DNA of 47,980 nucleotides from a virus (taxonomy: Duplodnaviria; Heunggongvirae; Uroviricota; Caudoviricetes). This document shows positions 1 through 41,348 of the stretch, in pieces. The notes beneath the pieces are model-generated. The model saw only the letters and a list, made by a program, of their open reading frames with translations, did no database searches and was not told where the DNA came from. Positions within the stretch are counted from its first letter, which is position 1. The number at the start of each line of letters is the position of its first letter. The DNA lies in the IMG/VR virus record IMGVR_UViG_2565956724_000008, positions 1-47,980 of that record. The stretch is one strand, 5' to 3'. Made by a program: the position numbers and the translations under genes.

Positions 1-318
1 ATGAAAAAGATAGCTGCTATATCATTAATTAGTATTTTTATTATGTCTGGTTGTGCTGTGCATAATGATGAGACAAGTATCGGTAAATTTGGTCTTGCAT
101 ATAAAAGTAATATTCAGCGTAAACTCGATAACCAATACTACACCGAAGCCGAAGCTTCTTTAGCCAGGGGTAGAATATCTGGTGCAGAAAATATAGTAAA
201 AAATGATGCAACTCATTTCTGTGTTACTCAGGGCAAAAAAATGCAAATAGTTGAGCTGAAGACAGAAGGTGTAGGATTACATGGTGTCGCTCGTCTGACA
301 TTCAAATGTGGAGAGTGA
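1..318 (+). CDS. putative small lipoprotein; host flank outside the prophage att core
   Basis: ORF from ATG at window start; N-terminal signal peptide with lipobox-like MSGC; AT-rich; lies outside the att core at 478..504. Family not recognised. Confidence 0.5.
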   Translation: MKKIAAISLISIFIMSGCAVHNDETSIGKFGLAYKSNIQRKLDNQYYTEAEASLARGRISGAENIVKNDATHFCVTQGKKMQIVELKTEGVGLHGVARLTFKCGE

Positions 319-380
319 GAATATTTTTTGGTAAGCGTCAAATATGCGCGTTCTGGCTGTGCGTAGCCGGAACCTGTGGG

Positions 381-413
381 AGCACGATGCCGATAAGTGA
401 AAGGCATCGTGCT
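381..413. repeat. perfect 11-bp stem / 11-nt loop inverted repeat (agcacgatgcc...ggcatcgtgct)
   Basis: Read directly from sequence; no T-run on either side, so not a classic intrinsic terminator. Confidence 0.4.
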
Positions 414-477
414 ATGAAGGAGGATTCTATCGATGTGGTCAATGGAAGACGGTTACCAGAGATAGGGCTTATGCATA

Positions 478-504
478 AAAAAATAAGCCCGTGTAAGGGA
501 GATT
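478..504. other. P2-type attachment site core (prophage/host junction)
   Basis: Sequence aaaaaataagcccgtgtaagggagatt matches the phage P2 att core as I recall it; located about 80 bp beyond the int stop, as expected for a P2 prophage end. Confidence 0.5.
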
Positions 505-583
505 TAGGGTGTCACCAGTAGGGGCTTTCAACGGTACAATGCGGGTTTGAGCGGCATAAATTACCACTGAAAGCCCTTAAACG

Positions 584-1597
584 TTACTCTACTGTGGACA
601 CTGTGTGGACACTCTCGGCCTCAGTACCACCTCTTAGCGGATTAAGAGAAATGGCGTCCTGAAGGTACTCTGGCGCAAAATGAGCGTAAACCATAGTTTG
701 CTCAATCCGCGTGTGACCTAGTATCCGTTGTAGCGTGATAATACTTCCTCCATTAATCATGAAATGAGTGGCAAAGCTGTGCCTTAGTGCATGTGTGGCT
801 TGCCCCATTGGCAAATCCGGTTTTATTGCTTTCATTGTTCGTCTGAAGCGAGGGTAATCAGCATCAGGGAATAAAAAACCTCGTTTGTTATCCGCGATCA
901 TTTTGGCAACAGCCTCTGAGATCGGGACGGTGCGTGGTTTGTTTGTTTTCGTTTTAACAAACGTGACGCGGTTATGGATGATATTTTCTGCTTTCAAACG
1001 AGCTGCTTCTCCCCAACGTGCTCCAGTACTCAGGCAAAGAATCGCAATCTTTTTGTTGTCGCCGTCAAGAGCAGCAAGCAGTAAGGCAATTTCTTCCTGC
1101 GTGAGATAGCCTGTGTCTGGTTTTTCCTCCTTAAGCCTTTTTGTCCCTCTGATAGGGTGCTCACCAAAGAATAACTCCGCTTCAATCAGGGCTGTAAACA
1201 TGCCGCTAATACATGTTAAATCACGATTGATACTCGAAGGTTTAATACCCTGACTTCTTCGGGTGGCGCAGTACTGGCTGATAAGCGATTTCGTAATTTG
1301 AAATGCGCATGGGTCATTCGTTATTTTTGTGAAGATTTCAATTTTTCCAAGATTAGATTTCCCATGCTCTTCGTGTTTACCCTTTAAATCCCACCAGATC
1401 TGTGTCAGCTCCGACAGACGTCGCTTGTCTGTTGGTTTTGATAGCCATTCTTTATTGTGGTGGTTGTACAACGTGTATTTCTCGAAAGCGACAGCTTCGC
1501 TTTTCTTATCAAACTTCCTACGGATGCGTTTTCCATTACGTCCAGTAGGGCGGATGTCCACTTCATATCGACCATCATCGAGTTTTTTGATTGCCAT
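584..1597 (-). CDS. int: tyrosine integrase (P2 Int-like)
   Basis: 337 aa, the same length as P2 Int; C-terminal HxLRHxxAT...Y catalytic region (ATHALRHSFATHF...VYAHF); adjacent to att core. Confidence 0.9.
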   Translation of the reverse strand: MAIKKLDDGRYEVDIRPTGRNGKRIRRKFDKKSEAVAFEKYTLYNHHNKEWLSKPTDKRRLSELTQIWWDLKGKHEEHGKSNLGKIEIFTKITNDPCAFQITKSLISQYCATRRSQGIKPSSINRDLTCISGMFTALIEAELFFGEHPIRGTKRLKEEKPDTGYLTQEEIALLLAALDGDNKKIAILCLSTGARWGEAARLKAENIIHNRVTFVKTKTNKPRTVPISEAVAKMIADNKRGFLFPDADYPRFRRTMKAIKPDLPMGQATHALRHSFATHFMINGGSIITLQRILGHTRIEQTMVYAHFAPEYLQDAISLNPLRGGTEAESVHTVSTVE

Positions 1598-3368: not shown

Positions 3369-3670
3369 TGTCCTGTTCTCGTTCAGTTGTATTACTGAAT
3401 AACGCCTTAAAAATCGCCGTTATGAAAAATGGCGATTTGTCTCTTATTCAACTTGGTCTTGATAAAGAAAAACGCGAAATAACTGAGTCTGTTATCGCGA
3501 TTTATCAGAACGAATTAAACCTCCTGTCTGATGTGGTCAATTTGCTTGTTAAACGCGCTGTGTTTCACAAGCAAATCTCCTCCGTGGATGAACTGACGAA
3601 ATTAACGACAGAAATCGCCAGCTATTGCGCTGATGAATTTAAAAACCTTAACGACAAAAGGAACTGGTAA
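3365..3670 (+). CDS. hypothetical early protein (P2 orf81 position)
   Basis: 101-aa ORF; start overlaps the previous stop (ATGA), suggesting translational coupling. Confidence 0.55.
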
Positions 3671-3894
3671 TGCCGGACAACGTAGATTTTATTCAGGCAC
3701 AACAGGCTGAATTACTGGAGCGCCAGATTAACGCGGCAAGGGTAAAACATTGCGGTGCTTCTGCGATGGTTTGCGAAGAGTGTGACGCGCCAATACCTGC
3801 TGCCCGTCGTGCGGCTTATCCGTCAGCCACGCGTTGTGTTTCCTGTCAGTCAGTTTTTGAAGCAAAAAACAAACATTACCGGAGAACGGCATGA
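3670..3894 (+). CDS. TraR/DksA-family C4 zinc-finger protein (P2 orf82 position)
   Basis: 74 aa with CEEC...(17 aa)...CVSC four-cysteine motif typical of the TraR/DksA family. Confidence 0.65.
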   Translation: MPDNVDFIQAQQAELLERQINAARVKHCGASAMVCEECDAPIPAARRAAYPSATRCVSCQSVFEAKNKHYRRTA

Positions 3895-4166
3895 GTATTC
3901 GTATTGAAATTGGCGAACGTTATGTCGTTACCAGTGACAGCTTTCAGTTTATTCTCCACGAGAAAAAGAGAGCTGAAAGCGGTAAAAACGCCGGTCAGGA
4001 ATGGCTGGCGGTGGTTGGTTATTACCCGAAATTAAGCCAGCTCGTTTCCGGCCTGATGCATCACGATATTCTGACCGGAAGCGCAAAGTCTTTTGCTGAT
4101 TTAAACGCGCAGGTTGAGCAAATCAGCAAGCGTTGTTCAGAGGCTTTTGGCTCATATGGCCGTTAA
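3891..4166 (+). CDS. hypothetical early protein (P2 orf83 position)
   Basis: 91-aa ORF immediately upstream of and overlapping the A start. Confidence 0.55.
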   Translation: MSIRIEIGERYVVTSDSFQFILHEKKRAESGKNAGQEWLAVVGYYPKLSQLVSGLMHHDILTGSAKSFADLNAQVEQISKRCSEAFGSYGR

Positions 4167-6429
4167 AGCCTCCGGGCGTTTTGTCCCTCCGTCAGCATTT
4201 GCCGCAGGCACCGGTAAGACGTTTACCGGTGCTTATGCATGGAACGCGCCACGCGAGGCCGTCGGGCGCGAAAGACCCCTTACACGTGACGAGATGCGTC
4301 AGGTGCAAGGTGTTTTATCCACGATTAACCGCCTGCCTTACTTTTTGCGCTCGCTGTTTACTTCACGCTATGACTACATCCGGCGCAATAAAAGCCCGGT
4401 GCACGGGTTTTATTTCCTCACATCCACTTTTCAGCGTCGTTTATGGCCGCGCATTGAGCGTGTGAATCAGCGCCATGAAATGAACACCGACGCGTCGTTG
4501 CTGTTTCTGGCAGAGCGTGATCACTATGCGCGCCTGCCGGGAATGAATGACAAGGAGCTGAAAAAGTTTGCCGCCCGTATCTCATCGCAGCTTTTCATGA
4601 TGTATGAGGAACTCAGCGATGCCTGGGTGGATGCGCATGGCGAAAAAGAATCACTGTTTACGGATGAGGCTCAGGATCACCTGTATGGTCATGTTGCTGG
4701 CGCTGCACGAGCTTTCAATATTTCCCCTCTCTACTGGAAAAAATACCGTAAAAGACAGATGACCACGAGGCAGGCATATTCTGCCATTGCCCGTCTGTTT
4801 AACGATGAGTGGTGGACTCATCAGCTTAAAGGCCAGCGTATGCGCTGGCATGAAGCGTTACTGATAGCTGTCGGGGAGGTCAATAAAGACCGTTCTCCTT
4901 ATGCCAGTAAACACGCCATTCGTGATGTGCGTGCGCGCCGCCAGGCAAATCTGGAATTTCTTAAATCGTGTGACCTTGAAAACAGGGAAACCGGCGAGCG
5001 CATCGACCTTATCAGTAAGGTGATGGGCAGTATTTCTAATCCTGAAATTCGCCGGATGGAGCTGATGAACACCATTGCCGGTATTGAGCGTTACGCCGCT
5101 GCAGAGGGTGATGTGGGGATGTTTATCACGCTGACCGCGCCGTCAAAGTATCACCCGACACGTCAGGTAGGAAAAGGCGAAAGTAAAACCGTGCAGCTTA
5201 ATCACGGCTGGAACGATGAGGCATTTAATCCAAAGGATGCGCAGCGTTATCTCTGCCGTATCTGGAGCCTGATGCGCACGGCATTCAAGGATAATGATTT
5301 ACAGGTCTACGGTTTGCGTGTCGTCGAGCCACACCACGACGGAACGCCGCACTGGCATATGATGCTTTTTTGTAATTCACGCCAGCGTAACCAGATTATC
5401 GAAATCATGCGTCGCTATGCGCTCAAAGAGGATGGCGACGAAAGAGGAGCCGCGCGAAACCGTTTTCAGGCAAAACACCTTAACCGGGGCGGTGCTGCGG
5501 GATATATCGCGAAATACATTTCAAAAAACATCGACGGCTATGCACTGGATGGTCAGCTCGATAACGACACCGGCAGGCCGCTGAAAGACACTGCAGCGGC
5601 TGTTACCGCATGGGCGTCAACGTGGCGCATCCCGCAATTTAAAACGGTTGGCCTGCCGACAATGGGGGCTTACCGTGAACTACGCAAATTGCCGCGCGGC
5701 GTCAGCATTGCTGATGAGTTTGACGAGCGCGTCGAGGCTGCACGCGCCGCCGCAGACAGTGGTGATTTTGCGTTGTATATCAGCGCGCAGGGTGGGGCAA
5801 ATGTCCCGCGCGATTGTCAGACTGTCAGAGTCGCCCGTAGCCCGTCGGATGAAGTTAACGAGTACGAGGAAGAAGTCGAGAGAGTGGTCGGCATTTACGC
5901 GCCGCATCTCGGCGCGCGTCATATTCATATCACCAGAACGACGGACTGGCGCATTGTGCCGAAAGTTCCGGTCGTTGAGCCTTTGACTTTAAAAAGCGGC
6001 ATCGCCGCGCCTCGGAGTCCTGTCAATAACTGTGGAAAGCTCACTGGTGGTGATACTTCGTTACCGGCTCCCACACCTTCTGAGCACGCCGCAGCAGTGC
6101 TTAATCTGGTAGATGACGGTGTTATCGAATGGAATGACCCGGAGGTCGTGAGAGCGCTCAGAAGTGCATTAAAACACGGCCTGAGAAGACCAAACCGTCA
6201 GCAAAGAAACGGAAGCCCGTTAAAACCGCATGAAATAGCGCCATCGGCCAGACTGACCCGGTCGGAACGAATGCAAATTACCCGTATCCGCGTTGACCTT
6301 ACTCAGAACGGTATCAGGCCTCAGCGATGGGAGCTTGAGGCGCTGGCGCGTGGGGCAACTGTAAATTATGACGGGAAAAAATTCACGTATCCGGTTGCTG
6401 ATGAGTGGTCGGGATTTTCCTCAAACTAA
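4156..6429 (+). CDS. A: rolling-circle replication initiator endonuclease A
   Basis: Long ORF; I place the start at in-frame ATG 4156 (MAVKASGRF..., as in P2 A) rather than ORF-track 4114; P2 A is about 761 aa. Contains HxH-type (PHWHMM) and YIAKYISK motifs of rolling-circle Rep proteins. Confidence 0.9.
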   Translation: MAVKASGRFVPPSAFAAGTGKTFTGAYAWNAPREAVGRERPLTRDEMRQVQGVLSTINRLPYFLRSLFTSRYDYIRRNKSPVHGFYFLTSTFQRRLWPRIERVNQRHEMNTDASLLFLAERDHYARLPGMNDKELKKFAARISSQLFMMYEELSDAWVDAHGEKESLFTDEAQDHLYGHVAGAARAFNISPLYWKKYRKRQMTTRQAYSAIARLFNDEWWTHQLKGQRMRWHEALLIAVGEVNKDRSPYASKHAIRDVRARRQANLEFLKSCDLENRETGERIDLISKVMGSISNPEIRRMELMNTIAGIERYAAAEGDVGMFITLTAPSKYHPTRQVGKGESKTVQLNHGWNDEAFNPKDAQRYLCRIWSLMRTAFKDNDLQVYGLRVVEPHHDGTPHWHMMLFCNSRQRNQIIEIMRRYALKEDGDERGAARNRFQAKHLNRGGAAGYIAKYISKNIDGYALDGQLDNDTGRPLKDTAAAVTAWASTWRIPQFKTVGLPTMGAYRELRKLPRGVSIADEFDERVEAARAAADSGDFALYISAQGGANVPRDCQTVRVARSPSDEVNEYEEEVERVVGIYAPHLGARHIHITRTTDWRIVPKVPVVEPLTLKSGIAAPRSPVNNCGKLTGGDTSLPAPTPSEHAAAVLNLVDDGVIEWNDPEVVRALRSALKHGLRRPNRQQRNGSPLKPHEIAPSARLTRSERMQITRIRVDLTQNGIRPQRWELEALARGATVNYDGKKFTYPVADEWSGFSSN

Positions 6430-6601
6430 TAATGGTGTTTGACAAAGAGATGTTGATGAGACTAAGAATTTTATTTATCTGTATAACCATTCGGTTAGAG
6501 TACAATAGTTTCGAGTGATATGAATAAAAATAACGGCTAAGTTTTCAACATGCGATTGTTATGGGTTGGATTAAGGATAAGTAACTATATGAAATAATAT
6601 A

Positions 6602-6634
6602 GGGCAAGAAGGTGTTCTTGCCCTTTGTTTATTT
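6602..6634. terminator. bidirectional rho-independent terminator between convergent A and SIR2 genes
   Basis: gggcaagaa-ggtg-ttcttgccc hairpin followed by tttgtttattt on + and by a T-rich run on -; read directly. Confidence 0.6.
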
Positions 6635-9227
6635 AAGCGGCAATTTCCATATTGCTTTTATATTTTAAGAGAGCGTTTTGGGGAACTGCTGGCCAAGCTA
6701 AGAATCTATAATAGTTCATATAATCTTTTTCTATCAGGTTTTTTAGTTGTTTGTTTGCTTTAAATTCATCGTCAAGTAAAAAGAATGCACACATGGCTGC
6801 ATCACCTTTTGAATTGTTATGTGCTAAAACTGAATTTATGTCGTTTTCTTTAATGTCTTGATTGTCTTTTTTCTTGGCAACTTCTCTGTTTATTATTAAG
6901 ACATCTCTCTCTCTGTAGTCTTTAATTTTGTCAAGGTTTTCATTGACTATATTAATTGTTTCTTTATAGTTTCCTGCAAGCAGGTTGGTATAAGCTTTGC
7001 CTAAAATATAATTACTGAATCCATAACCTTTATCATAAGCTTCATCAAGAAGTTCTATCGCTTTTTTGAAATCACTGTTTAAAGATGCAATATCGGATTT
7101 TAATTTCAGAATGGTAATTTCTGATTTGTTTCTTGGCAGGCTGTCAATAAACTCTTCTGCCAGTTTGATGTTGTTTTTATTAATTAATAATATGTCCACA
7201 ATACTATCCGCATGATTACTCTTCCACGGATGATTCATGGCTTCTTTAGCTAATTCAATGCCTGCATTAATGTCTCTGTTGCAGCCTATCTCATATCGAG
7301 CTTTAAATATAATGAAAGGAGCAATTCTTGCAATGTCGCCCTCTTCTTCATATTTATCAATGAAGCCTTTCATTAAACTGGGAGTGTTTTCATCGAAGTC
7401 TGTTTCAAATAAAGACAGGTGTAGTTTTGTTAAATATCTTAATATGTTTCTCTTTTTGTTTTTCGATGACGTTTTGTAAATGTTGGATAATGTTTCTATG
7501 CACAATAATGTTTTTTCTTTTTTTTGTAATGCACAAGTAAAATCAGTGTATAACGACAAATATGTATCGTGGGTAGGGTTGATTTCATTTATTTGGTCGA
7601 GCATTTCTTGTATTAAATTATTACAATCTTTCTTATCATAGCTTGATTGATGTTTTATCATTATTGCGTCATATTTTATTCTCCAAGCGATATTGTCTAG
7701 ATCGCTACTTTGGAGTAAGCTCTTATCAATTAGGTTATGTATTTCATCAAAGGTTATTAATCCCTCGTCATGATTTTCCAGATGAAGAATAGCAATTCTG
7801 CTTAAATGATTCTTAAGGTTTATGCTATATGGGAATTTTTCTAGCAATCCCTTAAGGTAATGTATTTTTTCCTTTAGATCTGTGAATATGTTTGTTCTTG
7901 ATAGGGCGTAATTTATATTAAACTCATCAAGAGCGATAAGTTTATCACTGATTTCTAATGCAGACTTTGTATCTTTTTGTTCTTCTTTTATTTCAATTAG
8001 CCTGCGCAGGTATTTGGATTTTATATTGTCATTATCAGCGTTATCGATTAATTCCTTTAGTTTTGTCTCAGCGCTTAAATATTTTTTGTTTCTAATGAGG
8101 TTGTCAATGTATAACAAATTCTTGAAATTTTCTTCAGGGATCTTTTGATCGTCTAAGTCATTTTGGGATAACTCATTTATTAATGATGATATGTCATGTG
8201 TTAGAGTGTATCTTTTTAATTTTGAAAGATCGGATTTGATAATGTCATTTTTAGATAATTTGTACTCATCAGTTATAAAATTTTGGATCATCATCTCTCT
8301 TTTTGTGGATTTTTGATTCCCTCCAAAAGAGAGTGCGCAACCTAATTCAAGGGCTAGTTCTGCCATTAACTCATCAAAGCCTTCTATTTCTACCCAATAA
8401 ACTTTCTCTTGACCTAGAAGCCTAATTAGTTCTGGTGGGATGGCGTCATTTTGTCTTACGCACCAATATACCCCATTCCGTAGGTAATCGTCCTGTTTTA
8501 ATAAATGTTTTAAAACATCCATGATAGAGCTGTCATTGCCAGCATAACCAACAAAAATAATCCCGTATTCTTTAGTGAATTCAGTTAGTTTTTCACGAGT
8601 GTTACCTTCTAATGACTCGGTTTCTTTTAAAGAGCTTTTTATGCTATCAAATAGATAATCACCATGTAATTTTATTATTTTGGGTCTTGAAGAAGTAATT
8701 GAGACGCCTTTAATTGATGAGTCATGTGCGCATAATAATGGTCTGTCAGAAGAAAATTGATAAAATGCTTCATTTATTAAATCGTCAAAATTTGTTGTGA
8801 AGACAGTATCAAAAAACTTTGATTCAAATAGTTCAACGAGATAAGCATATCCAATTGAAGGTAATTTTTTGTCTACTTGAAGCTCAACAAATCTTCTGCG
8901 TTGAGATGGGAGATCAAATTTCTTTTCAAAAAGAGAGGAGTATTCATTGTTTGGGTCGTACCAGACTGGATGGTTTTTGGATAGCCATTTTTTAGCTTCT
9001 TCGGCATCGATATATTCTTCATTGGATAGTCTTGTGTATATCTCTTCTCTCCATTTTGCAACTAACTCTTGACCAGTTTTTATTCCTGATGTAACGGATG
9101 CACCAGCACCAAGAAAGAGTGAATAGTTAGGTGATGTACCTGATTTGATTTTTATATAATCAGCTAAATCTTTAACTGTTCTTTTTTTGGCAACCAGTTG
9201 TTCCTTGGTAGTATCACGATCAGACAT
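6633..9227 (-). CDS. SIR2-domain protein with long C-terminal helical-repeat region; candidate anti-phage NADase (DSR-like) in the P2 tin/old slot
   Basis: 864 aa; N-terminal motifs FLGAGASVTSG, TTNFDDL and KLHGDY match the sirtuin-like Rossmann NAD-binding fold; C-terminal ~550 aa is K/N/I/L/E-rich with TPR-like appearance; gene visibly AT-rich compared with flanking phage genes; GGAGGG Shine-Dalgarno before the ATG. Confidence 0.7.
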   Translation of the reverse strand: MSDRDTTKEQLVAKKRTVKDLADYIKIKSGTSPNYSLFLGAGASVTSGIKTGQELVAKWREEIYTRLSNEEYIDAEEAKKWLSKNHPVWYDPNNEYSSLFEKKFDLPSQRRRFVELQVDKKLPSIGYAYLVELFESKFFDTVFTTNFDDLINEAFYQFSSDRPLLCAHDSSIKGVSITSSRPKIIKLHGDYLFDSIKSSLKETESLEGNTREKLTEFTKEYGIIFVGYAGNDSSIMDVLKHLLKQDDYLRNGVYWCVRQNDAIPPELIRLLGQEKVYWVEIEGFDELMAELALELGCALSFGGNQKSTKREMMIQNFITDEYKLSKNDIIKSDLSKLKRYTLTHDISSLINELSQNDLDDQKIPEENFKNLLYIDNLIRNKKYLSAETKLKELIDNADNDNIKSKYLRRLIEIKEEQKDTKSALEISDKLIALDEFNINYALSRTNIFTDLKEKIHYLKGLLEKFPYSINLKNHLSRIAILHLENHDEGLITFDEIHNLIDKSLLQSSDLDNIAWRIKYDAIMIKHQSSYDKKDCNNLIQEMLDQINEINPTHDTYLSLYTDFTCALQKKEKTLLCIETLSNIYKTSSKNKKRNILRYLTKLHLSLFETDFDENTPSLMKGFIDKYEEEGDIARIAPFIIFKARYEIGCNRDINAGIELAKEAMNHPWKSNHADSIVDILLINKNNIKLAEEFIDSLPRNKSEITILKLKSDIASLNSDFKKAIELLDEAYDKGYGFSNYILGKAYTNLLAGNYKETINIVNENLDKIKDYRERDVLIINREVAKKKDNQDIKENDINSVLAHNNSKGDAAMCAFFLLDDEFKANKQLKNLIEKDYMNYYRFLAWPAVPQNALLKYKSNMEIAA

Positions 9228-9532
9228 TTTCCCTCCATAAATTATGCTGTGTGAAGTAAGAATAATCCTAGGTATGGCTATTTTTACATGAAATTCAATG
9301 GGTTTTCGTTTTTCTTATTTGCATTTTGTGACTGAGATCAAGCTATGAGGGAGAAATACTTTTTTATTGTTCGCTAGAGGCTAATTAGCTTGTACTAATA
9401 GTTTATGATGTACCATAGCGTTGAATGATTTTGCATGCATTTGTCAGATGCTTACTAATGTTGTTATGTCAGAGCTGGTGCGCTTTAGGTTATTTCATGC
9501 AACTGCATTAAAACCGTCTCATGAAGCGGGCG

Positions 9533-9551
9533 GGCGAGGCGGGGAAAGCAC
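9533..9551. other. cos cohesive-end site (P2-type 19 nt)
   Basis: ggcgaggcggggaaagcac matches the P2 cohesive-end sequence as I recall it; lies between the cargo gene and Q, as in P2. Confidence 0.55.
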
Positions 9552-9720
9552 TGCGCGCTGGCGGTGGTGCTGATTTTATTTTTTCAGCGTCTGAGCGCGT
9601 CGTGATGGCGTTTAGATTGTTCGCCGGGGCGTTGGTGTGTCTGTGGGATGTTTTGTGCGGTGGTGAGCGTGTGAGGGCGTGATGGCGGGTTGTAAAAAAG
9701 CCGCCCGCAGGCGGCGATGT

Positions 9721-10755
9721 TCAGCCGTTGTCAGTGTCCAGTGAGTAGTTTTTAAAGCGGATGACCTCCTGACCGAGCCAGCCGTTTATCTCGCGGATCC
9801 TGTCCTGTAGCGGGATAAGTTCATTGCGGACAAAGACCTTTGCCACTTTCTCAATATCACCCAGCGACCCGACGTTCTCCGGCTTGCCGCCCATCAACTG
9901 AAAGGGGATGCGGTGCGCGTCCAGCAGGTCAGCGGCGCTGGCTTTTTTGATATTAAAAAAATCGTCCTTCGTTGCCACTTCACTGAGCGGGATAATTTTA
10001 ATGCCGTCGGCTTTCCCCTGCGGGGCATAGAGAAACAGATTTTTAAAGTTGTTGCGGCCTTTCGACTTGACCATGTTTTCGCGAAGCATTTCGATATCGT
10101 TGCGATCCTGCACGGCATCAGTGACGTACATGATGTATCCGGCATGTGCGCCATTTTCGTAATACTTGCGGCGGAACAGCGTGGCCGACTCATTCAGCCA
10201 GGCAGAGTTAAGGGCGCTGAGATATTCCGGCAGGCCGTACAGCTCCTGATTAATATCCGGCTCCAGCAGGTGAAACACGGAGCCGGGCGCGAAGGCTGTC
10301 GGCTCGTTGAAGGACGGCACCCACCAGTAAACATCCTCTTCCACACCACGGCGGGTATATTTTGCCGGTGAGGTTTCCAGCCTGATAACTTTACCGGTGG
10401 TGCTGTAACGCTTTTCCAGAAATGCATTACCAAATACCAGAAAATCCAGCACAAAGCGGCTGAAATCCTGCTGGGAAAGCCATGGATGCGGGATAAATGT
10501 CGAGGCCAGAATATTACGTTTGACGTAAATCGGTGAGCTGTGATGCACGGCAGCACGCAGGCTTTTTGCCAGACCGGTAAAGCTGACCGGCGGCTCATAC
10601 CATCTGCCGTTACTGATGCATTCGACGTAATCCAGAATGTCACGGCGGTCGAGCACCGGCACCGGCTCACCAAAGGTGAATGCCTCCATTTTCGGGGCGC
10701 TGGCAGTCATTTTTTTTGCCGCAGGTTGCGGTGTTTTCCCTTTTTTCTTGCTCAT
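9721..10755 (-). CDS. Q: portal protein Q
   Basis: 344 aa as in P2 Q; N-terminus MSKKKGKTPQPAAKK; first gene after cos. Confidence 0.9.
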   Translation of the reverse strand: MSKKKGKTPQPAAKKMTASAPKMEAFTFGEPVPVLDRRDILDYVECISNGRWYEPPVSFTGLAKSLRAAVHHSSPIYVKRNILASTFIPHPWLSQQDFSRFVLDFLVFGNAFLEKRYSTTGKVIRLETSPAKYTRRGVEEDVYWWVPSFNEPTAFAPGSVFHLLEPDINQELYGLPEYLSALNSAWLNESATLFRRKYYENGAHAGYIMYVTDAVQDRNDIEMLRENMVKSKGRNNFKNLFLYAPQGKADGIKIIPLSEVATKDDFFNIKKASAADLLDAHRIPFQLMGGKPENVGSLGDIEKVAKVFVRNELIPLQDRIREINGWLGQEVIRFKNYSLDTDNG

Positions 10756-12527
10756 CAGTAAAACTCCAGAATGGTGGATGTCAGCGGGGTGCTGATACCG
10801 GCGGTGAGTGGCTCATTTAACAGAGCGTGCATGGTCGCCCAGGCGAGGTCGGCGTGGCTGGCTTCCTCGCTGCGGCTGGCCTCATAGGTGGCGCTGCGTC
10901 CGCTGCTGGTCATGGTCTTGCGGATAGCCATAAACGAGCTGGTGATGTCGGTGGCGCTGACGTCATATTCCAGACAGCCACGGCGAATAACGTCTTTTGC
11001 CTTGAGCACCATTGCGGTTTTCATTTCCGGCGTGTAGCGGATGTCGCGCGCGGCGGGATAGAACGAGCGCACGAGCTGGAACACGCCGACACCGAGGCCG
11101 GTGGCATCAATACCGATGTATTCGACGTTGTATTTTTCGGTGAGTTTGCGGATGGATTCCGCCTGGGTGGCAAAGTCCATGCCTTTCCACTGGTGACGCT
11201 CAAGTATTCTGAATTTGCCACCGGCCACCACCGGTGGTGCCAGCACCACGCATCCGGCGCTGTCGCCACGGTGTGACGGGTCGTAACCAATCCATACTGG
11301 GCGGGAGCCGAACGGATTCGCGGCAAACGGCGCATAGTCTTCCCATTCTTCCAGCGTGTCGACCATGCAGCGTTGCAGCTCCTCGAACGGGAACACCGAC
11401 GCCTTGTCGTCAACAAATTCACACATGAACAGGTTTTTAAAATCGTCGGCGCTGTTTTCACGTTTGAGCTGCTCAATGTCGAACAGCGTGCAGCCACCTT
11501 TCAGGGCGTCCTCAATGGTGACAATCTGCCGCCACTGGCCGTCCGCACAGAGAAGCCCACCGGCAAGGGCGTTATGACTGACGTCGATTTCCACGCGTTC
11601 GGCGGCGCTGGCGCGTCCCCGGTTGAACAGTTCACCTGACCAGAACGGGTAGGCGTCGTGCGCCAGCGTGGACGGGGTGGAGAAATAGGTCGAGCGCAGG
11701 TGACTCTGTGAGGCCATACCTGATGCCACCTTACGCAGTACCTGAAAATTCGGGATCCAGAAAATCTCGTCGACGTACAGGTCGCCGTTATGGCTCTGCG
11801 CGGTGTTGGAGTTGGTGCCGAGAAAAATCAGTTTTGCGCCGTTATTGCCCAGGACAATCGGGTCACCGGTCAGGTCAACGTCAACCAGACGGGCAAAGGC
11901 GATGATGTATTCGCGGAACACATACGCCTGCGTTTTACTGGCCGACAGAAAAATCTGGTTATGGCCGGTTTTCAGGGCGCGCAGCAGTGCCTCGCGGGAA
12001 AAATAAAACGTCGCGCCAATCTGGCGGGATTTCAGGATATCGCGGATGCGGTGCTCAAGCCCGGCGCGATACCAGTGCAACTGATAGTCGAAAGACTGCT
12101 CAAAGAAAATCTGCTCCAGCTTTTCGATGGCCTCGTCACTGAAAAAATTCTTTTTCGGTTTGCGACGCCCGCCTTTGTTGCGGTTAGCGACGTTCGGATT
12201 AAGGTCTGCCTCGTTGCCGGTCTGACTGTAACGGTTGACCCGTGCCAGTCGTTCAATCTGGCGTCCGAGCAGATCAATTTCCTTGAAGTCACCGCCGGTT
12301 TTCTGCGGTTTGATGATGAGCTGGGTCAGCCGCGCTTCCAGACTCATTTCGACACGGCTGATGGGGGCAACGCTGTCCCAGCCGTCGCGCTGTTTCCAGC
12401 TCTGCACCGTCGGGCGTTTCATCTGCAACATGGCGGCAATCTGCGGCACGGAAAACCCCTGCCAGTACAGCAGCGCCGCCTGACGACGCGGGTCGTGTAA
12501 AAGAGTGGTGTCTGTGGTGATGGTCAT
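10755..12527 (-). CDS. P: terminase large (ATPase) subunit P
   Basis: Start placed at in-frame ATG (MTITTDTT...), giving 590 aa as in P2 P; the ORF track extends it 10 codons upstream to 12557. Confidence 0.85.
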   Translation of the reverse strand: MTITTDTTLLHDPRRQAALLYWQGFSVPQIAAMLQMKRPTVQSWKQRDGWDSVAPISRVEMSLEARLTQLIIKPQKTGGDFKEIDLLGRQIERLARVNRYSQTGNEADLNPNVANRNKGGRRKPKKNFFSDEAIEKLEQIFFEQSFDYQLHWYRAGLEHRIRDILKSRQIGATFYFSREALLRALKTGHNQIFLSASKTQAYVFREYIIAFARLVDVDLTGDPIVLGNNGAKLIFLGTNSNTAQSHNGDLYVDEIFWIPNFQVLRKVASGMASQSHLRSTYFSTPSTLAHDAYPFWSGELFNRGRASAAERVEIDVSHNALAGGLLCADGQWRQIVTIEDALKGGCTLFDIEQLKRENSADDFKNLFMCEFVDDKASVFPFEELQRCMVDTLEEWEDYAPFAANPFGSRPVWIGYDPSHRGDSAGCVVLAPPVVAGGKFRILERHQWKGMDFATQAESIRKLTEKYNVEYIGIDATGLGVGVFQLVRSFYPAARDIRYTPEMKTAMVLKAKDVIRRGCLEYDVSATDITSSFMAIRKTMTSSGRSATYEASRSEEASHADLAWATMHALLNEPLTAGISTPLTSTILEFY

Positions 12528-12700
12528 GAATACCTCGCCGTGATGAATACACGGCAAGGCTACTGAGTCGCGCCCCGCGATTCGCTAAGGTGCTGTTGTG
12601 TCAGTGATAAGCCATCCGGGACTGATGGCGGAGGATGCGCATCGTCGGGAAACTGATGCCGACATGTGACTCCTCTAATCACTATTCAGGACTCCTGACA

Positions 12701-13555
12701 ATGGCAAAAAAAGTCTCAAAATTCTTTCGTATCGGCGTTGAGGGTGACACCTGTGACGGGCGTGTCATCAGTGCGCAGGATATTCAGGAAATGGCCGAAA
12801 CCTTTGACCCGCGTGTCTATGGTTGCCGCATTAACCTGGAACATCTGCGCGGCATCCTGCCTGACGGTATTTTTAAGCGTTATGGCGATGTGACCGAACT
12901 GAAGGCCGAAAAGATTGACGATGATTCGGCGCTGAAAGGCAAATGGGCGCTGTTTGCGAAAATCACCCCGACCGATGACCTTATCGCGATGAACAAGGCC
13001 GCGCAGAAGGTCTATACCTCAATGGAAATTCAGCCGAACTTTGCCAATACCGGCAAATGTTATCTGGTGGGTCTGGCCGTCACCGATGACCCGGCAAGCC
13101 TCGGCACGGAATACCTGGAATTCTGCCGCACGGCAAAACACAACCCCCTGAACCGCTTCAAATTAAGCCCTGAAAACCTGATTTCAGTGGCAACGCCCGT
13201 TGAGCTGGAATTTGAAGACCTGCCTGAAACCGTGTTCACCGCCCTGACCGAAAAGGTGAAGTCCATTTTTGGCCGCAAACAGGCCAGCGATGACGCCCGT
13301 CTGAATGACGTGCATGAAGCGGTGACCGCTGTTGCTGAACATGTGCAGGAAAAACTGAGCGCCACTGAGCAGCGCCTCGCTGAGATGGAAACCGCTTTTT
13401 CCGCACTTAAGCAGGATGTGACTGACAGGGCGGATGAAACCAGCCAGGCATTCACCCGCCTGAAAAACAGTCTCGACCACACCGAAAGTCTGACCCAGCA
13501 GCGCCGCAGCAAGGCCACCGGTGGTGGCGGTGACGCCCTGATGACGAACTGCTGA
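12701..13555 (+). CDS. O: capsid scaffolding protein O
   Basis: Start placed at MAKKVSKFF (ATG 12701), giving 284 aa as in P2 O; the ORF track starts at 12635. Confidence 0.85.
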   Translation: MAKKVSKFFRIGVEGDTCDGRVISAQDIQEMAETFDPRVYGCRINLEHLRGILPDGIFKRYGDVTELKAEKIDDDSALKGKWALFAKITPTDDLIAMNKAAQKVYTSMEIQPNFANTGKCYLVGLAVTDDPASLGTEYLEFCRTAKHNPLNRFKLSPENLISVATPVELEFEDLPETVFTALTEKVKSIFGRKQASDDARLNDVHEAVTAVAEHVQEKLSATEQRLAEMETAFSALKQDVTDRADETSQAFTRLKNSLDHTESLTQQRRSKATGGGGDALMTNC

Positions 13556-13613
13556 CCGGCGTCAGTCAGTCCGGGAAAACCTTCACGATTAACCCTTAAT
13601 TTCAGGAAAAACT

Positions 13614-14687
13614 ATGCGCCAGGAAACCCGCTTTAAATTTAATGCCTACCTGTCCCGTGTTGCCGAACTGAACGGCATCGACGCCGGTGATGTGTCGAAA
13701 AAATTCACCGTTGAACCGTCGGTCACCCAGACCCTGATGAACACCATGCAGGAGTCCTCTGACTTTCTGACCCGCATCAACATTGTGCCGGTCAGCGAAA
13801 TGAAAGGGGAAAAAATTGGCATCGGTGTCACCGGCTCCATCGCCAGCACCACCGACACCGCCGGTGGCACCGAGCGTCAGCCGAAGGACTTCTCGAAGCT
13901 GGCGTCAAACAAGTACGAATGCGACCAGATTAACTTCGATTTTTATATCCGCTACAAAACGCTGGACCTGTGGGCGCGTTATCAGGATTTCCAGCTCCGT
14001 GTCCGTAACGCCATTATCAAACGCCAGTCCCTTGATTTAATCATGGCCGGTTTTAACGGCGTGAGGCGTGCCGAAACCTCTGACCGCAGCAGCAATCCGA
14101 TGCTGCAGGATGTGGCGGTCGGCTGGCTGCAGAAATACCGCAATGAAGCCCCGGCGCGCGTGATGAGCAAGGTCACTGACGAGGAAGGGCACACCACCTC
14201 TGAGGTTATCCGCGTGGGTAAGGGCGGTGATTATGCCAGCCTTGACGCACTGGTGATGGATGCGACCAACAACCTGATTGAGCCGTGGTATCAGGAAGAC
14301 CCTGACCTTGTGGTGGTTGTGGGACGTCAGCTACTGGCGGACAAGTATTTTCCCATCGTCAACAAGGAGCAGGACAACAGCGAAATGCTGGCCGCTGACG
14401 TCATCATCAGCCAGAAACGCATCGGTAACCTGCCGGCGGTACGCGTCCCGTACTTTCCGGCGGATGCGATGCTCATCACAAAGCTGGAAAACCTGTCCAT
14501 CTACTACATGGATGACAGCCATCGCCGCGTGATTGAGGAAAACCCGAAACTCGACCGCGTGGAGAACTACGAGTCAATGAACATTGATTACGTGGTGGAA
14601 GACTACGCCGCCGGTTGTCTGGTGGAAAAAATTAAGGTCGGTGATTTCTCCACACTGGCTAAAGCGACCGCAGAGCCGGGAGCGTAA
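13614..14687 (+). CDS. N: major capsid protein N
   Basis: 357 aa as in P2 N; follows the scaffold gene. Confidence 0.9.
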   Translation: MRQETRFKFNAYLSRVAELNGIDAGDVSKKFTVEPSVTQTLMNTMQESSDFLTRINIVPVSEMKGEKIGIGVTGSIASTTDTAGGTERQPKDFSKLASNKYECDQINFDFYIRYKTLDLWARYQDFQLRVRNAIIKRQSLDLIMAGFNGVRRAETSDRSSNPMLQDVAVGWLQKYRNEAPARVMSKVTDEEGHTTSEVIRVGKGGDYASLDALVMDATNNLIEPWYQEDPDLVVVVGRQLLADKYFPIVNKEQDNSEMLAADVIISQKRIGNLPAVRVPYFPADAMLITKLENLSIYYMDDSHRRVIEENPKLDRVENYESMNIDYVVEDYAAGCLVEKIKVGDFSTLAKATAEPGA

Positions 14688-14690
14688 CCG

Positions 14691-15434
14691 ATGACGAGTC
14701 CCGCACAGCGCCACATGATGCGGGTCTCGGCAGCGATGACCGCGCAGCGGGAAGCCGCCCCGCTGCGACATGCAACTGTCTATGAGCAGATGCTGGTTAA
14801 GCTCGCCGCAGACCAGCGCACACTGAAAGCGATTTATTCAAAAGAGCTGAAGGCCGCGAAAAAACGCGAACTGCTGCCGTTCTGGTTGCCGTGGGTGAAC
14901 GGCGTGCTGGAGCAGGGCAAAGGTGCACAGGATGACATTCTGATGACGGTCATGCTGTGGCGTCTGGATACCGGCGATATTGCCGGTGCGCTGGAGATTG
15001 CCCGTTATGCCCTGAAGTACGGTCTGACCATGCCGGGTAAACACCGCCGTACCCCGCCGTACATGTTCACCGAGGAGGTAGCGCTCGCGGCCATGCGCGC
15101 TCACGCTGCCGGTGAGTCTGTGGATACCCGCCTGCTGACGGAGACCCTTGAACTGACCGCCACGGCTGACATGCCTGATGAAGTGCGCGCAAAGCTGCAC
15201 AAAATCACCGGTCTGTTTCTGCGTGACGGTGGTGATGCCGCCGGTGCGCTGGCTCACCTGCAACGTGCGACACAGCTCGACTGTCAGGCAGGCGTCAAAA
15301 AAGAGATTGAACGACTGGAGCGGGAGCTGAAACCGAAGCCGGAGCCGCAGCCCAAAGCGGCCACCCGCGCCCCGCGTAAGATCCGGAGCGTGACACCGGC
15401 AAAACGTGGACGCCCGAAAAAGAAAGCCAGTTAA
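14691..15434 (+). CDS. M: terminase small (endonuclease) subunit M
   Basis: 247 aa as in P2 M; basic C-terminal tail. Confidence 0.85.
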   Translation: MTSPAQRHMMRVSAAMTAQREAAPLRHATVYEQMLVKLAADQRTLKAIYSKELKAAKKRELLPFWLPWVNGVLEQGKGAQDDILMTVMLWRLDTGDIAGALEIARYALKYGLTMPGKHRRTPPYMFTEEVALAAMRAHAAGESVDTRLLTETLELTATADMPDEVRAKLHKITGLFLRDGGDAAGALAHLQRATQLDCQAGVKKEIERLERELKPKPEPQPKAATRAPRKIRSVTPAKRGRPKKKAS

Positions 15435-15533
15435 CAACCGAATGCGCCCCGCGCCAGGGCGGCACGCCGGTCAGTGAGGGTGAATCACCTGACACTGCAC
15501 CGGCGTCCACCGCCCGACTTTTCAGAGGTAGTC

Positions 15534-16043
15534 ATGATGACGCTGATTATTCCGCGAAAGGAGGCTCCCGTGTCCGGTGAGGGTACGGTGGTCATCCCGC
15601 AACCGGCAGGCGACGAGCCGGTGATTAAAAACACGTTCTTTTTTCCCGATATCGACCCGAAGCGCGTCCGGGAACGTATGCGCCTTGAGCAGACCGTCGC
15701 CCCCGCCCGTCTGCGTGAGGCCATCAAGTCAGGCATGGCGGAGACGAATGCGGAGCTGTACGAGTACCGCGAACAGAAAATTGCCGCCGGTTTTACGCGT
15801 CTGGCGGACGTCCCGGCGGACGACATCGACGGTGAAAGCATCAAAGTTTTTTACTACGAGCGCGCCGTGTGTGCGATGGCGACCGCGTCGCTTTATGAAC
15901 GTTATCGCGGTGTGGATGCCAGTGCAAAAGGCGACAAGAAGGCCGACAGCATTGACAGCACCATTGATGAGCTGTGGCGGGATATGCGCTGGGCAGTGGC
16001 GCGCATCCAGGGCAAGCCGCGCTGCATCGTGAGTCAAATCTGA
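15534..16043 (+). CDS. L: head completion/stabilisation protein L
   Basis: Start placed at MMTLIIPRKE (ATG 15534), giving 169 aa as in P2 L. Confidence 0.8.
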   Translation: MMTLIIPRKEAPVSGEGTVVIPQPAGDEPVIKNTFFFPDIDPKRVRERMRLEQTVAPARLREAIKSGMAETNAELYEYREQKIAAGFTRLADVPADDIDGESIKVFYYERAVCAMATASLYERYRGVDASAKGDKKADSIDSTIDELWRDMRWAVARIQGKPRCIVSQI

Positions 16044-16246
16044 TGAAGACCTTTGCGCTACAGGGCGACACGCTCGACGCCATTTGTGTCCGGTATTACG
16101 GGCGCACTGAGGGCGTGGTTGAGACCGTGCTCGCCGCAAATCCGGGACTGGCTGAACTGGGTGCGGTGTTGCCGCACGGCACCGCCGTCGAACTGCCCGA
16201 CGTTCAGACCGCGCCCGTGGCTGAAACTGTCAATCTGTGGGAGTAA
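16043..16246 (+). CDS. X: tail protein X
   Basis: Start placed at MKTFALQGD (ATG 16043, overlapping the L stop), giving 67 aa as in P2 X. Confidence 0.8.
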   Translation: MKTFALQGDTLDAICVRYYGRTEGVVETVLAANPGLAELGAVLPHGTAVELPDVQTAPVAETVNLWE

Positions 16247-16249
16247 CGC

Positions 16250-17028: not shown

Positions 17029-17042
17029 ACGGAGTAAACACC

Positions 17043-24551: not shown

Positions 24552-24572
24552 TTTTCACTCCATATAGCTAAA

Positions 24573-38753: not shown

Positions 38754-41348
38754 ATGTCTGATCGTGATACTACCAAGGAACAACTGGTTGCCAAAAAAAG
38801 AACAGTTAAAGATTTAGCTGATTATATAAAAATCAAATCAGGTACATCACCTAACTATTCACTCTTTCTTGGTGCTGGTGCATCCGTTACATCAGGAATA
38901 AAAACTGGTCAAGAGTTAGTTGCAAAATGGAGAGAAGAGATATACACAAGACTATCCAATGAAGAATATATCGATGCCGAAGAAGCTAAAAAATGGCTAT
39001 CCAAAAACCATCCAGTCTGGTACGACCCAAACAATGAATACTCCTCTCTTTTTGAAAAGAAATTTGATCTCCCATCTCAACGCAGAAGATTTGTTGAGCT
39101 TCAAGTAGACAAAAAATTACCTTCAATTGGATATGCTTATCTCGTTGAACTATTTGAATCAAAGTTTTTTGATACTGTCTTCACAACAAATTTTGACGAT
39201 TTAATAAATGAAGCATTTTATCAATTTTCTTCTGACAGACCATTATTATGCGCACATGACTCATCAATTAAAGGCGTCTCAATTACTTCTTCAAGACCCA
39301 AAATAATAAAATTACATGGTGATTATCTATTTGATAGCATAAAAAGCTCTTTAAAAGAAACCGAGTCATTAGAAGGTAACACTCGTGAAAAACTAACTGA
39401 ATTCACTAAAGAATACGGGATTATTTTTGTTGGTTATGCTGGCAATGACAGCTCTATCATGGATGTTTTAAAACATTTATTAAAACAGGACGATTACCTA
39501 CGGAATGGGGTATATTGGTGCGTAAGACAAAATGACGCCATCCCACCAGAACTAATTAGGCTTCTAGGTCAAGAGAAAGTTTATTGGGTAGAAATAGAAG
39601 GCTTTGATGAGTTAATGGCAGAACTAGCCCTTGAATTAGGTTGCGCACTCTCTTTTGGAGGGAATCAAAAATCCACAAAAAGAGAGATGATGATCCAAAA
39701 TTTTATAACTGATGAGTACAAATTATCTAAAAATGACATTATCAAATCCGATCTTTCAAAATTAAAAAGATACACTCTAACACATGACATATCATCATTA
39801 ATAAATGAGTTATCCCAAAATGACTTAGACGATCAAAAGATCCCTGAAGAAAATTTCAAGAATTTGTTATACATTGACAACCTCATTAGAAACAAAAAAT
39901 ATTTAAGCGCTGAGACAAAACTAAAGGAATTAATCGATAACGCTGATAATGACAATATAAAATCCAAATACCTGCGCAGGCTAATTGAAATAAAAGAAGA
40001 ACAAAAAGATACAAAGTCTGCATTAGAAATCAGTGATAAACTTATCGCTCTTGATGAGTTTAATATAAATTACGCCCTATCAAGAACAAACATATTCACA
40101 GATCTAAAGGAAAAAATACATTACCTTAAGGGATTGCTAGAAAAATTCCCATATAGCATAAACCTTAAGAATCATTTAAGCAGAATTGCTATTCTTCATC
40201 TGGAAAATCATGACGAGGGATTAATAACCTTTGATGAAATACATAACCTAATTGATAAGAGCTTACTCCAAAGTAGCGATCTAGACAATATCGCTTGGAG
40301 AATAAAATATGACGCAATAATGATAAAACATCAATCAAGCTATGATAAGAAAGATTGTAATAATTTAATACAAGAAATGCTCGACCAAATAAATGAAATC
40401 AACCCTACCCACGATACATATTTGTCGTTATACACTGATTTTACTTGTGCATTACAAAAAAAAGAAAAAACATTATTGTGCATAGAAACATTATCCAACA
40501 TTTACAAAACGTCATCGAAAAACAAAAAGAGAAACATATTAAGATATTTAACAAAACTACACCTGTCTTTATTTGAAACAGACTTCGATGAAAACACTCC
40601 CAGTTTAATGAAAGGCTTCATTGATAAATATGAAGAAGAGGGCGACATTGCAAGAATTGCTCCTTTCATTATATTTAAAGCTCGATATGAGATAGGCTGC
40701 AACAGAGACATTAATGCAGGCATTGAATTAGCTAAAGAAGCCATGAATCATCCGTGGAAGAGTAATCATGCGGATAGTATTGTGGACATATTATTAATTA
40801 ATAAAAACAACATCAAACTGGCAGAAGAGTTTATTGACAGCCTGCCAAGAAACAAATCAGAAATTACCATTCTGAAATTAAAATCCGATATTGCATCTTT
40901 AAACAGTGATTTCAAAAAAGCGATAGAACTTCTTGATGAAGCTTATGATAAAGGTTATGGATTCAGTAATTATATTTTAGGCAAAGCTTATACCAACCTG
41001 CTTGCAGGAAACTATAAAGAAACAATTAATATAGTCAATGAAAACCTTGACAAAATTAAAGACTACAGAGAGAGAGATGTCTTAATAATAAACAGAGAAG
41101 TTGCCAAGAAAAAAGACAATCAAGACATTAAAGAAAACGACATAAATTCAGTTTTAGCACATAACAATTCAAAAGGTGATGCAGCCATGTGTGCATTCTT
41201 TTTACTTGACGATGAATTTAAAGCAAACAAACAACTAAAAAACCTGATAGAAAAAGATTATATGAACTATTATAGATTCTTAGCTTGGCCAGCAGTTCCC
41301 CAAAACGCTCTCTTAAAATATAAAAGCAATATGGAAATTGCCGCTTAA
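38754..41348 (+). CDS. SIR2-domain candidate defence protein (mirror copy)
   Basis: Mirror of 6633..9227; identical 864-aa translation. Confidence 0.7.
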   Translation: MSDRDTTKEQLVAKKRTVKDLADYIKIKSGTSPNYSLFLGAGASVTSGIKTGQELVAKWREEIYTRLSNEEYIDAEEAKKWLSKNHPVWYDPNNEYSSLFEKKFDLPSQRRRFVELQVDKKLPSIGYAYLVELFESKFFDTVFTTNFDDLINEAFYQFSSDRPLLCAHDSSIKGVSITSSRPKIIKLHGDYLFDSIKSSLKETESLEGNTREKLTEFTKEYGIIFVGYAGNDSSIMDVLKHLLKQDDYLRNGVYWCVRQNDAIPPELIRLLGQEKVYWVEIEGFDELMAELALELGCALSFGGNQKSTKREMMIQNFITDEYKLSKNDIIKSDLSKLKRYTLTHDISSLINELSQNDLDDQKIPEENFKNLLYIDNLIRNKKYLSAETKLKELIDNADNDNIKSKYLRRLIEIKEEQKDTKSALEISDKLIALDEFNINYALSRTNIFTDLKEKIHYLKGLLEKFPYSINLKNHLSRIAILHLENHDEGLITFDEIHNLIDKSLLQSSDLDNIAWRIKYDAIMIKHQSSYDKKDCNNLIQEMLDQINEINPTHDTYLSLYTDFTCALQKKEKTLLCIETLSNIYKTSSKNKKRNILRYLTKLHLSLFETDFDENTPSLMKGFIDKYEEEGDIARIAPFIIFKARYEIGCNRDINAGIELAKEAMNHPWKSNHADSIVDILLINKNNIKLAEEFIDSLPRNKSEITILKLKSDIASLNSDFKKAIELLDEAYDKGYGFSNYILGKAYTNLLAGNYKETINIVNENLDKIKDYRERDVLIINREVAKKKDNQDIKENDINSVLAHNNSKGDAAMCAFFLLDDEFKANKQLKNLIEKDYMNYYRFLAWPAVPQNALLKYKSNMEIAA

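Follow-up and report, generated by a model that had tools for sequence, protein, structure and literature searches.

A SIR2-TPR gene in the gpA-gpQ slot of a P2-like Escherichia coli prophage encodes a candidate single-gene anti-phage NADase

We analysed a 47,980-nt stretch of tailed-phage DNA (IMG/VR record IMGVR_UViG_2565956724_000008, positions 1 to 47,980, here called the window) and identified a gene for an 864-aa protein in the slot flanked by gpA (replication) and gpQ (portal) of a P2-like Escherichia coli prophage. The protein joins an N-terminal SIR2 domain to a long tetratricopeptide repeat (TPR)-like arm, and we refer to it as SIR2-TPR. We consider it probable that the gene has some role in defence. 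On analogy with characterised systems we also favour, with rather less assurance, a fuller proposal in which SIR2-TPR would be a self-contained anti-phage protein of the prophage, a sensor fused to a SIR2 NADase, acting through the whole activation chain set out below. The open reading frame (ORF) and the features of its enzymatic part are:

6633..9227, minus strand: SIR2-TPR ORF, 864 aa, ATG start, stop codon at 6633-6635; equals WP_021563763.1, 'SIR2 family protein'
8328..9137, minus strand: predicted SIR2 (sirtuin-like NADase) domain, residues ~31-300
9096..9110, minus strand: GAGAS, residues 40-44, predicted NAD+-binding glycine loop located by motif search; G40, G42 and S44 invariant
8781..8798, minus strand: TTNFDD, residues 144-149, with predicted catalytic Asn146; all six residues invariant and identical in GsSir2
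8658..8666, minus strand: HGD, residues 188-190, with predicted catalytic His188; invariant and aligned with the HGD of GsSir2
8532..8534, minus strand: Asp232, invariant, predicted to bind nicotinamide adenine dinucleotide (NAD+) by its alignment with Asp230 of GsSir2

A preliminary description of this DNA, made from the letters alone, had pointed out the sirtuin-like motifs GAGAS, TTNFDD and HGD. Each occurs once in the 864-aa protein and, together with D232, is invariant in an alignment of 50 homologues that are 37-91% identical. The Pfam family SIR2_2 (PF13289) matches at 54.9 bits, above its gathering cut-off of 24.5 bits (E 1.4e-14), and an AlphaFold2 model built from the 50-sequence alignment (mean predicted local distance difference test score, pLDDT, 83.9) shows a Rossmann-type SIR2 fold at residues ~31-300, with SPARSA proteins as the top Foldseek matches. 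Two of the checks that the description had proposed, the SIR2_2 profile and the predicted fold, came out in its favour. An NCBIfam scan of the protein returned only a sub-threshold LapB TPR match. The motifs GAGxS, TTNxD and HG are sirtuin hallmarks that touch NAD+ (PMC12931631), and the D230A substitution in GsSir2/Ago abolishes both NAD+ binding and defence (bioRxiv 10.1101/2021.12.14.472599). Judged from the alignment and the model, the SIR2 domain keeps a complete, strictly conserved NAD+ pocket. The pocket belongs to a clade with proven NADase members, and by analogy with these we infer NADase activity for SIR2-TPR itself.

The remainder of the protein consists of two parts:

8148..8327, minus strand: helical linker, residues 301-360, from the secondary structure of the AlphaFold2 model; pLDDT lower at ~355-358
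6636..8147, minus strand: TPR-like alpha-solenoid, residues 361-864, ~30 helices; putative sensor or oligomerisation arm

Conservation of the linker is intermediate. In the model, residues 308-856 are all-helical and TPR-like, and residues 365-856 form an unbroken array of ~30 helices. Lysine, asparagine, isoleucine and leucine together make up 44% of residues 301-864 as compared to 29% of the N-terminus, which agrees with the K/N/I/L-rich, helical or TPR-like C-terminus described earlier. The family profile also matches consensus TPR proteins among the PDB sequences (E 3.5e-7), while a search of viral folds in BFVD gave generic TPR proteins only, none of them at E<=0.001. Neither a Walker A motif (motif search) nor an NTPase domain (Pfam) was found in the 864-aa protein. 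When the C-terminal 565 residues were searched with phmmer against 1.84 billion representative proteins, we obtained 99 matches, nearly all of them ~850-930 aa long and aligned from near residue 305, plus shorter sequences. Those matches of odd length that were checked with Pfam proved to be fragments, either SIR2 or TPR, or had no domain in Pfam, and no fusions to STAND or other effectors occurred among the 99. By this search, the TPR arm appears not to be shuffled among different effectors, unlike the Avs7/Dsr1 sensor.

The prophage has a P2-like gene order, with integrase, repressor, Cox and gpA, and the late genes gpQ, gpP, gpO and gpN. The SIR2-TPR gene is the sole cargo of the gpA-gpQ/cos slot, where the following features surround it:

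9231..9236, minus strand: Shine-Dalgarno sequence GGAGGG, 3 nt 5' of the SIR2-TPR ATG (ccctcc on the plus strand), read directly
6601..6624, scored on both strands: terminator-like hairpin with a 10-bp stem and a 4-nt loop, located between the stop codons of SIR2 and A
6430..9520, no strand: AT-rich cargo island from gene A to cos, GC 0.324 by base composition
4156..6429, plus strand: P2 gpA-type replication endonuclease, from the RefSeq annotation of the matching locus and the ORF listing
9721..10755, minus strand: P2 gpQ-type portal protein, from the ORF listing and from RefSeq at the matching locus
9533..9551, plus strand: GGCGAGGCGGGGAAAGCAC, presumed P2-type cos cohesive end, letters read directly

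The start of gene A is 4156 in RefSeq and 4114 in the ORF listing. We take GGCGAGGCGGGGAAAGCAC to be the P2 cohesive end, and it is because of this sequence at 9533-9551 that we place the SIR2-TPR gene between A and cos. The gene is convergent with A and codirectional with the portal gene Q. Its GC content is 0.323 (0.283 at third codon positions) as compared to 0.533 for gene A and 0.558 for Q and P together, so that GC drops from 53-56% in the flanks to 32% inside. The SIR2-TPR gene is a foreign-looking cargo of the prophage. The hairpin lies 9 nt past the SIR2-TPR stop and 172 nt past the A stop, and the cargo region holds six terminator-like sites versus 2.4 +/- 1.7 in shuffled sequences. 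No convincing second ORF, small ones included, was found in 6430-6632 or 9228-9720. The earlier picture of a convergent, AT-rich 864-aa gene with its own ribosome-binding site, set off from A by a bidirectional terminator, therefore stands. So does its placement in a known A-cos hotspot, which is the gpA-gpQ defence hotspot of P2-like prophages defined by Rousset et al. 2022 (PMC9122126).

Three E. coli O155 genomes (NWU_1, NWU_3 and NWU_4) contain the 3,291-nt interval from gpA to gpQ with 100% identity, and only 19 of 5,426 complete E. coli genomes have a copy covering at least 80% of it. In other E. coli strains the same A-Q slot is filled by alleles with 92%, 85% and 77% nucleotide identity. 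About 1,750 database proteins match the 864-aa protein; the best 120 of these are mostly SIR2 proteins of 860-890 aa from Enterobacterales, Aeromonas, Shewanella, Psychromonas and Vibrio. Relatives of ~860-930 aa are spread across Gammaproteobacteria and are a single gene in every context examined. Among 38 related loci in IMG/VR, 12 carry the gene between gpQ/gpP and gpA homologues, and the gpA of these 12 P2-like contigs is only 35-98% identical, including phages at 35% and ~77%. A Leclercia member (43% identical) resides in a lambdoid prophage, at 9001-11610 of the locus examined, with replication genes (DnaT/IstB-like, PerC) on one side and DinI/RusA on the other, and because of it we conclude that the cassette occupies accessory slots of unrelated temperate phages. 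Members in Aeromonas, Cedecea, Shewanella and Vibrio are lone chromosomal insertions amid housekeeping genes. In E. coli EC3 (NZ_CP060979.1, 1711206-1724339) the P2-like prophage has decayed, with the integrase truncated beside an IS66 element, gpA frameshifted, and terminase and tail genes truncated, and the 864-aa SIR2 allele is intact. No conserved partner gene was found across the P2-like, lambdoid, chromosomal and decayed-prophage contexts examined. As an autonomous single-gene cassette, SIR2-TPR moves among the accessory slots of phages. In the GenBank phage collection, tblastn gave no full-length relative and four matches, which cover the SIR2 domain only.

The cassette is 100% identical to those of NWU_1, NWU_3 and NWU_4, whereas the prophage backbone around it (window 3513-17720) is 98.7% identical. 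By megablast, the integrase end of the window (1-1068) finds no counterpart in the NWU_3 prophage, whose position is between pflA and pflB. Together the identical cassette, the more divergent backbone and the unmatched integrase end suggest that the cassette was recently exchanged between different P2-like backbones.

By sequence, the closest SIR2 domain is that of the SPARSA SIR2-APAZ proteins (Geobacter sulfurreducens GsSir2/Ago; PDB 8in8, 8jkz, 8y80), which are also the top Foldseek match. PADLOC Aga_SIR2 models match the SIR2 domain with E 5e-59 to 1.5e-37, and the PDB chains 8in8 and 8jkz are matched at E 6.5e-23 by the single sequence and 4e-29 by the family profile. Common to GsSir2 and the 864-aa protein are TTNFDD, HGD and the NAD+-binding Asp (D230 there, D232 here). 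By these comparisons the SIR2 module falls in the short prokaryotic Argonaute (short-pAgo; SPARSA) SIR2 clade rather than in the clade of the defence-associated sirtuins (DSR). The same matches could be read as the mark of an orphan or degenerate SIR2-APAZ subunit that senses nucleic acids together with an Argonaute from another locus, and a related Vibrio phage protein is indeed labelled 'pAgo__SIR2APAZ'. The SIR2-APAZ profile is, however, matched at positions 6-282 of 558 only, ending with the SIR2 domain, and what follows is an all-alpha TPR region with no APAZ. No Argonaute gene is adjacent, the neighbours being gpA and gpQ, and none was found in the homologue contexts examined. We regard such an orphan subunit as extremely unlikely. 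Where SPARSA has APAZ and an Argonaute partner, the 864-aa protein has neither and carries in their place a TPR solenoid as presumed sensor; because both are absent, a mechanism guided by nucleic acids is not expected. SPARSA membership itself was rejected on the same absence of APAZ and of an adjacent Argonaute gene.

Two further groups share this type of SIR2 domain. The PADLOC candidate PDC-S65 and PHROG 23427 match over the N-terminal ~340 residues (E 3e-27 and E 3.6e-92, respectively). Their proteins are single genes on phages or prophages, shorter than SIR2-TPR, with C-termini that do not match the TPR arm, and are uncharacterised. The class of ~555-680 aa represented by PHROG 23427 has a pAgo-type SIR2 domain 33-51% identical to that of SIR2-TPR and different, shorter C-termini, mostly unannotated and TPR in Haloferax virus Halfgib1. 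Members of this class occur on viral contigs (IMG/VR), adjacent to an integrase in a Vibrio Vinavirales element, and in the haloarchaeal pleolipovirus Halfgib1. The Vibrio phage gene annotated 'pAgo__SIR2APAZ' (PQ189367) has no Argonaute annotated in the flank examined.

The overall layout resembles that of DSR2 of Bacillus subtilis, in which one chain carries an N-terminal SIR2 domain and then a long alpha-solenoid. DSR2 senses the phage tail tube protein and is inhibited by DSAD1, and PMC10981675 and PMC11087589 describe it as a NADase triggered by a phage protein. SIR2-TPR would be expected to work on this principle too, with binding of a trigger followed by loss of NAD+. Foldseek places DSR2 chains at ranks 4-50 of the PDB search with full-length alignments (E ~1e-8). 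Such agreement, together with the single-gene layout, could mean that SIR2-TPR is a divergent member of DSR1 or DSR2 and hence already known. Against this, the family profile matched no DSR2 chain among the PDB sequences at E<=10, and no DSR model was among the PADLOC matches at E<=1, nor for five relatives at E<=0.001, in a model set whose DSR content was not verified. DSR2 also differs in size (chains of ~915-1,000 residues in the PDB list as compared to 864 aa here) and has no detectable sequence relation; the solenoid of the 864-aa protein scores as TPR and its SIR2 domain is of the SPARSA-type clade, unlike DSR2. DSR1 (E. coli Dsr1, WP_029488749.1) is likewise a single-gene SIR2 defence protein of E. 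coli. Its sensor is reported to be a bilobed Avs7-type domain that recognises major capsid proteins and is common to Avs7/STAND proteins and more than 20 effector types (bioRxiv 10.64898/2026.01.04.697583). The TPR arm, in contrast, is found only with SIR2, the C-terminal-arm search having returned SIR2-TPR proteins and no other effector fusions; this sets the two apart by description, their sequences not having been directly compared. DSR membership is accordingly very improbable in our judgement, and by the sequence tests run the 864-aa protein appears to be DSR2-like in overall layout and no DSR2 homologue. Of the likeness to DSR-type proteins drawn in the preliminary description, then, the architecture holds (the DSR2 Foldseek matches) and a family relation does not, neither DSR1 nor DSR2 having been matched by profile or by sequence; the caution it expressed over assigning a described family was warranted on the same grounds.

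Other SIR2 systems were compared in the same way. Avs5 (AVAST type 5) is SIR2-STAND-TPR, whereas the 864-aa protein lacks a STAND or nucleotide-binding oligomerisation (NOD) ATPase and has just a ~60-residue linker between its SIR2 domain and TPR arm. Membership in Avs5 was rejected for want of a Walker A motif, an NTPase match in Pfam and an Avs match in PADLOC. Thoeris ThsA, which has a C-terminal SLOG or Macro domain for signal binding and a ThsB partner, was rejected because the C-terminus here is TPR, no ThsA model matched in PADLOC and no TIR gene is a neighbour. SIR2-HerA (Nezha) was rejected because the gene is a single-gene cargo with no adjacent HerA. No DSR, Avs or ThsA models were matched in PADLOC by four of the five relatives; the fifth, a Haloferax protein, has weak ThsA matches.

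The two halves of the protein differ in how fast they evolve. Across the alignment, identity to SIR2-TPR is 64-98% in the SIR2 part and 23-87% in the TPR arm, and between genera the arm falls to 23-28% while the SIR2 part stays at 64-70%. The rate of nonsynonymous substitution (dN) in the TPR arm is ~3x that of the SIR2 part. Four E. coli alleles, all of exactly 864 codons with no indels, gave ratios of nonsynonymous to synonymous substitution (dN/dS) of 0.03-0.05 for the SIR2 part and 0.10-0.12 for the arm; these ratios are pairwise, and dS is saturated for the 77% allele. Substitution patterns of this kind point to a functional, constrained gene with a faster-evolving arm that is still under purifying selection. 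A conserved enzyme joined to a variable repeat arm is, by analogy, a typical build of immune sensors.

Between the window allele and its closest allele (GB089), dS is 0.146 in the SIR2 part and 0.477 in the TPR part. The ~3x lower dS in the SIR2 part of this pair hints at a recombination mosaic inside the gene.

The divergence of the arm also bears on what it would sense. A guard-type or indirect mode can be envisaged in which the ligand of the arm is a host protein or peptide, such as a chaperone or a host component that phages target in taking over the cell, and the SIR2 NADase fires on modification or displacement of that ligand. The 23-28% identity of the arm between genera exceeds the divergence expected for a conserved host ligand, and the SIR2-TPR family is found in very different hosts and mobile elements. 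We therefore consider the guard mode unlikely and prefer direct recognition of a phage product by the sensor-NADase fusion.

Under this preferred reading, constitutive expression from the AT-rich region upstream of the gene would supply the lysogen with the protein, which would be held inactive. When a second phage infects, the TPR arm would bind a phage-made protein or peptide, and binding would relieve autoinhibition, most likely through SIR2-SIR2 oligomerisation. The activated SIR2 domain would then split NAD+ into ADP-ribose and nicotinamide, the infection would abort, and the lysogen population and the resident prophage would be protected. ThsA is an oligomeric SIR2 NADase that forms filaments. 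SPARSA is activated by oligomerisation to a tetramer (PMC11452484) and Avs5 by filament formation (PMC11897194), and DSR2 works as a tetramer.

Several points weigh against this reading. A promoter scan of the cargo region found nothing above the shuffled expectation. The superposition on DSR2 is weak, with a template modelling (TM) score of ~0.2 and 12-14% identity in Foldseek. Pairwise dN/dS offered no sign of positive selection; with a mean far below 1 in the TPR arm, a gross imprint of an arms race is missing. About a quarter of the P2 hotspot cargo is non-defensive, for example partition systems and toxins (PMC9122126), and for this reason location in the hotspot alone is no proof of defence. 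The SIR2_2 allele from that hotspot was outside the systems tested in Rousset et al. 2022 (PMC9122126), and our literature search on a named SIR2-TPR system, PDC-S65 and a P2 hotspot SIR2 found no characterisation.

A non-defensive role would make SIR2-TPR an accessory deacylase, a SirTM-type ADP-ribosyltransferase or an addiction toxin that alters host physiology or stabilises the prophage. Pfam gives SIR2_2 instead of the deacetylase family SIR2, the NADases of SPARSA are by far the nearest in sequence, and the zinc-ribbon Cys4 module of classical sirtuins was not seen on inspection of the sequence and the model. With these observations, and with an enzyme and arm built as in immune sensors, we hold a non-defensive role to be decidedly unlikely.

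The gene had been catalogued before. Table S5A of Rousset et al. 2022 (PMC9122126) includes single-gene 'SIR2_2' entries, among them the 85% allele WP_124831363; WP_021563763 is not among the entries listed in the available part of these tables. The SIR2-TPR ORF also has a full-length match to PHROG 14359, annotated 'unknown function'. The suggestion in the preliminary description that this may be an undescribed variant is therefore right in that no characterisation was found, and has to be qualified in that the family is already present as 'SIR2_2' in Table S5A and as PHROG 14359. The effector and its logic are familiar, and the combination of this SIR2 clade with this sensor is one catalogued before and unrecognised by current defence annotation. 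Defence finders may miss SIR2-TPR by taking its SIR2 domain for a short-pAgo system with parts missing. Two SIR2 proteins from earlier screens were considered and set aside: pFR88, the only SIR2 construct tested in PMC9122126, carries an unrelated protein from the P4 hotspot, and the Sir2 homologue of Vassallo et al. is apparently the one in PD-T7-2, where its partner is HerA-like, and so is a different gene.

A broader reading is offered tentatively, at a little under even confidence. It holds that SIR2-TPR may represent a distinct and widespread third class of single-gene defence-associated sirtuins, with a SIR2 module that descends from a recent common ancestor with that of the SPARSA effector, and a phage trigger so far unrecognised. 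Such a class would be carried by temperate phages of Gammaproteobacteria, P2-like and lambdoid ones among them, and shorter relatives would occur in Vibrio tectivirus-like elements and a haloarchaeal pleolipovirus. One NADase cassette would have been paired now with a TPR arm for sensing proteins, now with an APAZ/Argonaute module for sensing nucleic acids; the target of the TPR arm would be a conserved phage protein that is new as an immune trigger. If the protein is active, protein-sensing sirtuin systems would be linked to the SPARSA effector via a common SIR2 module, and there would be a blind spot in annotation of the PADLOC/DefenseFinder style, in which such proteins surface as orphan 'SIR2-APAZ'. 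A compact 2.6-kb single-gene NAD+-depletion system would then also be added to the arsenal of E. coli prophages. With one enzyme, one repeat arm and alleles of 77-92% identity in the same slot, the design is simple to dissect. No new biochemical principle is promised, since SIR2 proteins are well known to deplete NAD+.

The window itself has the form of a near-perfect palindrome. Its positions 1-23070 match the reverse complement of 24911-47980 with 0 mismatches, leaving a unique centre of 1,840 nt (23071-24910). Because of this, all features of the left arm are doubled, the SIR2 gene included. The palindrome is almost certainly a fold-back assembly artefact, so the mirror SIR2 gene is no second biological copy and the fold-back leaves the SIR2-TPR finding unaffected. 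The hinge, window 22230-25751, is an invertible tail-fibre segment; the assembler evidently passed through this segment and then back along the other strand. The features concerned are:

38754..41348, plus strand: mirror copy of the SIR2-TPR ORF, identical, product of the palindromic window
22230-23537, plus strand: tail-fibre ORF with constant N-terminus and C-terminus 1, 435 aa
24573-25751, minus strand: tail-fibre ORF with constant N-terminus and C-terminus 2, 392 aa
23537-24139, plus strand: tail-fibre assembly gene inside the invertible segment
24111-24551, minus strand: opposed tail-fibre assembly gene inside the invertible segment
23044-23069 and 24912-24937, no strand: 26-nt junction site TTCTCGCATACCTTGGTTTGGGAGAA at the ends of the palindrome arms

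No invertase gene was identified in the window, though the whole window was not searched for one. The junction site TTCTCGCATACCTTGGTTTGGGAGAA resembles crossover sites of the Gin/Cin/Hin type.

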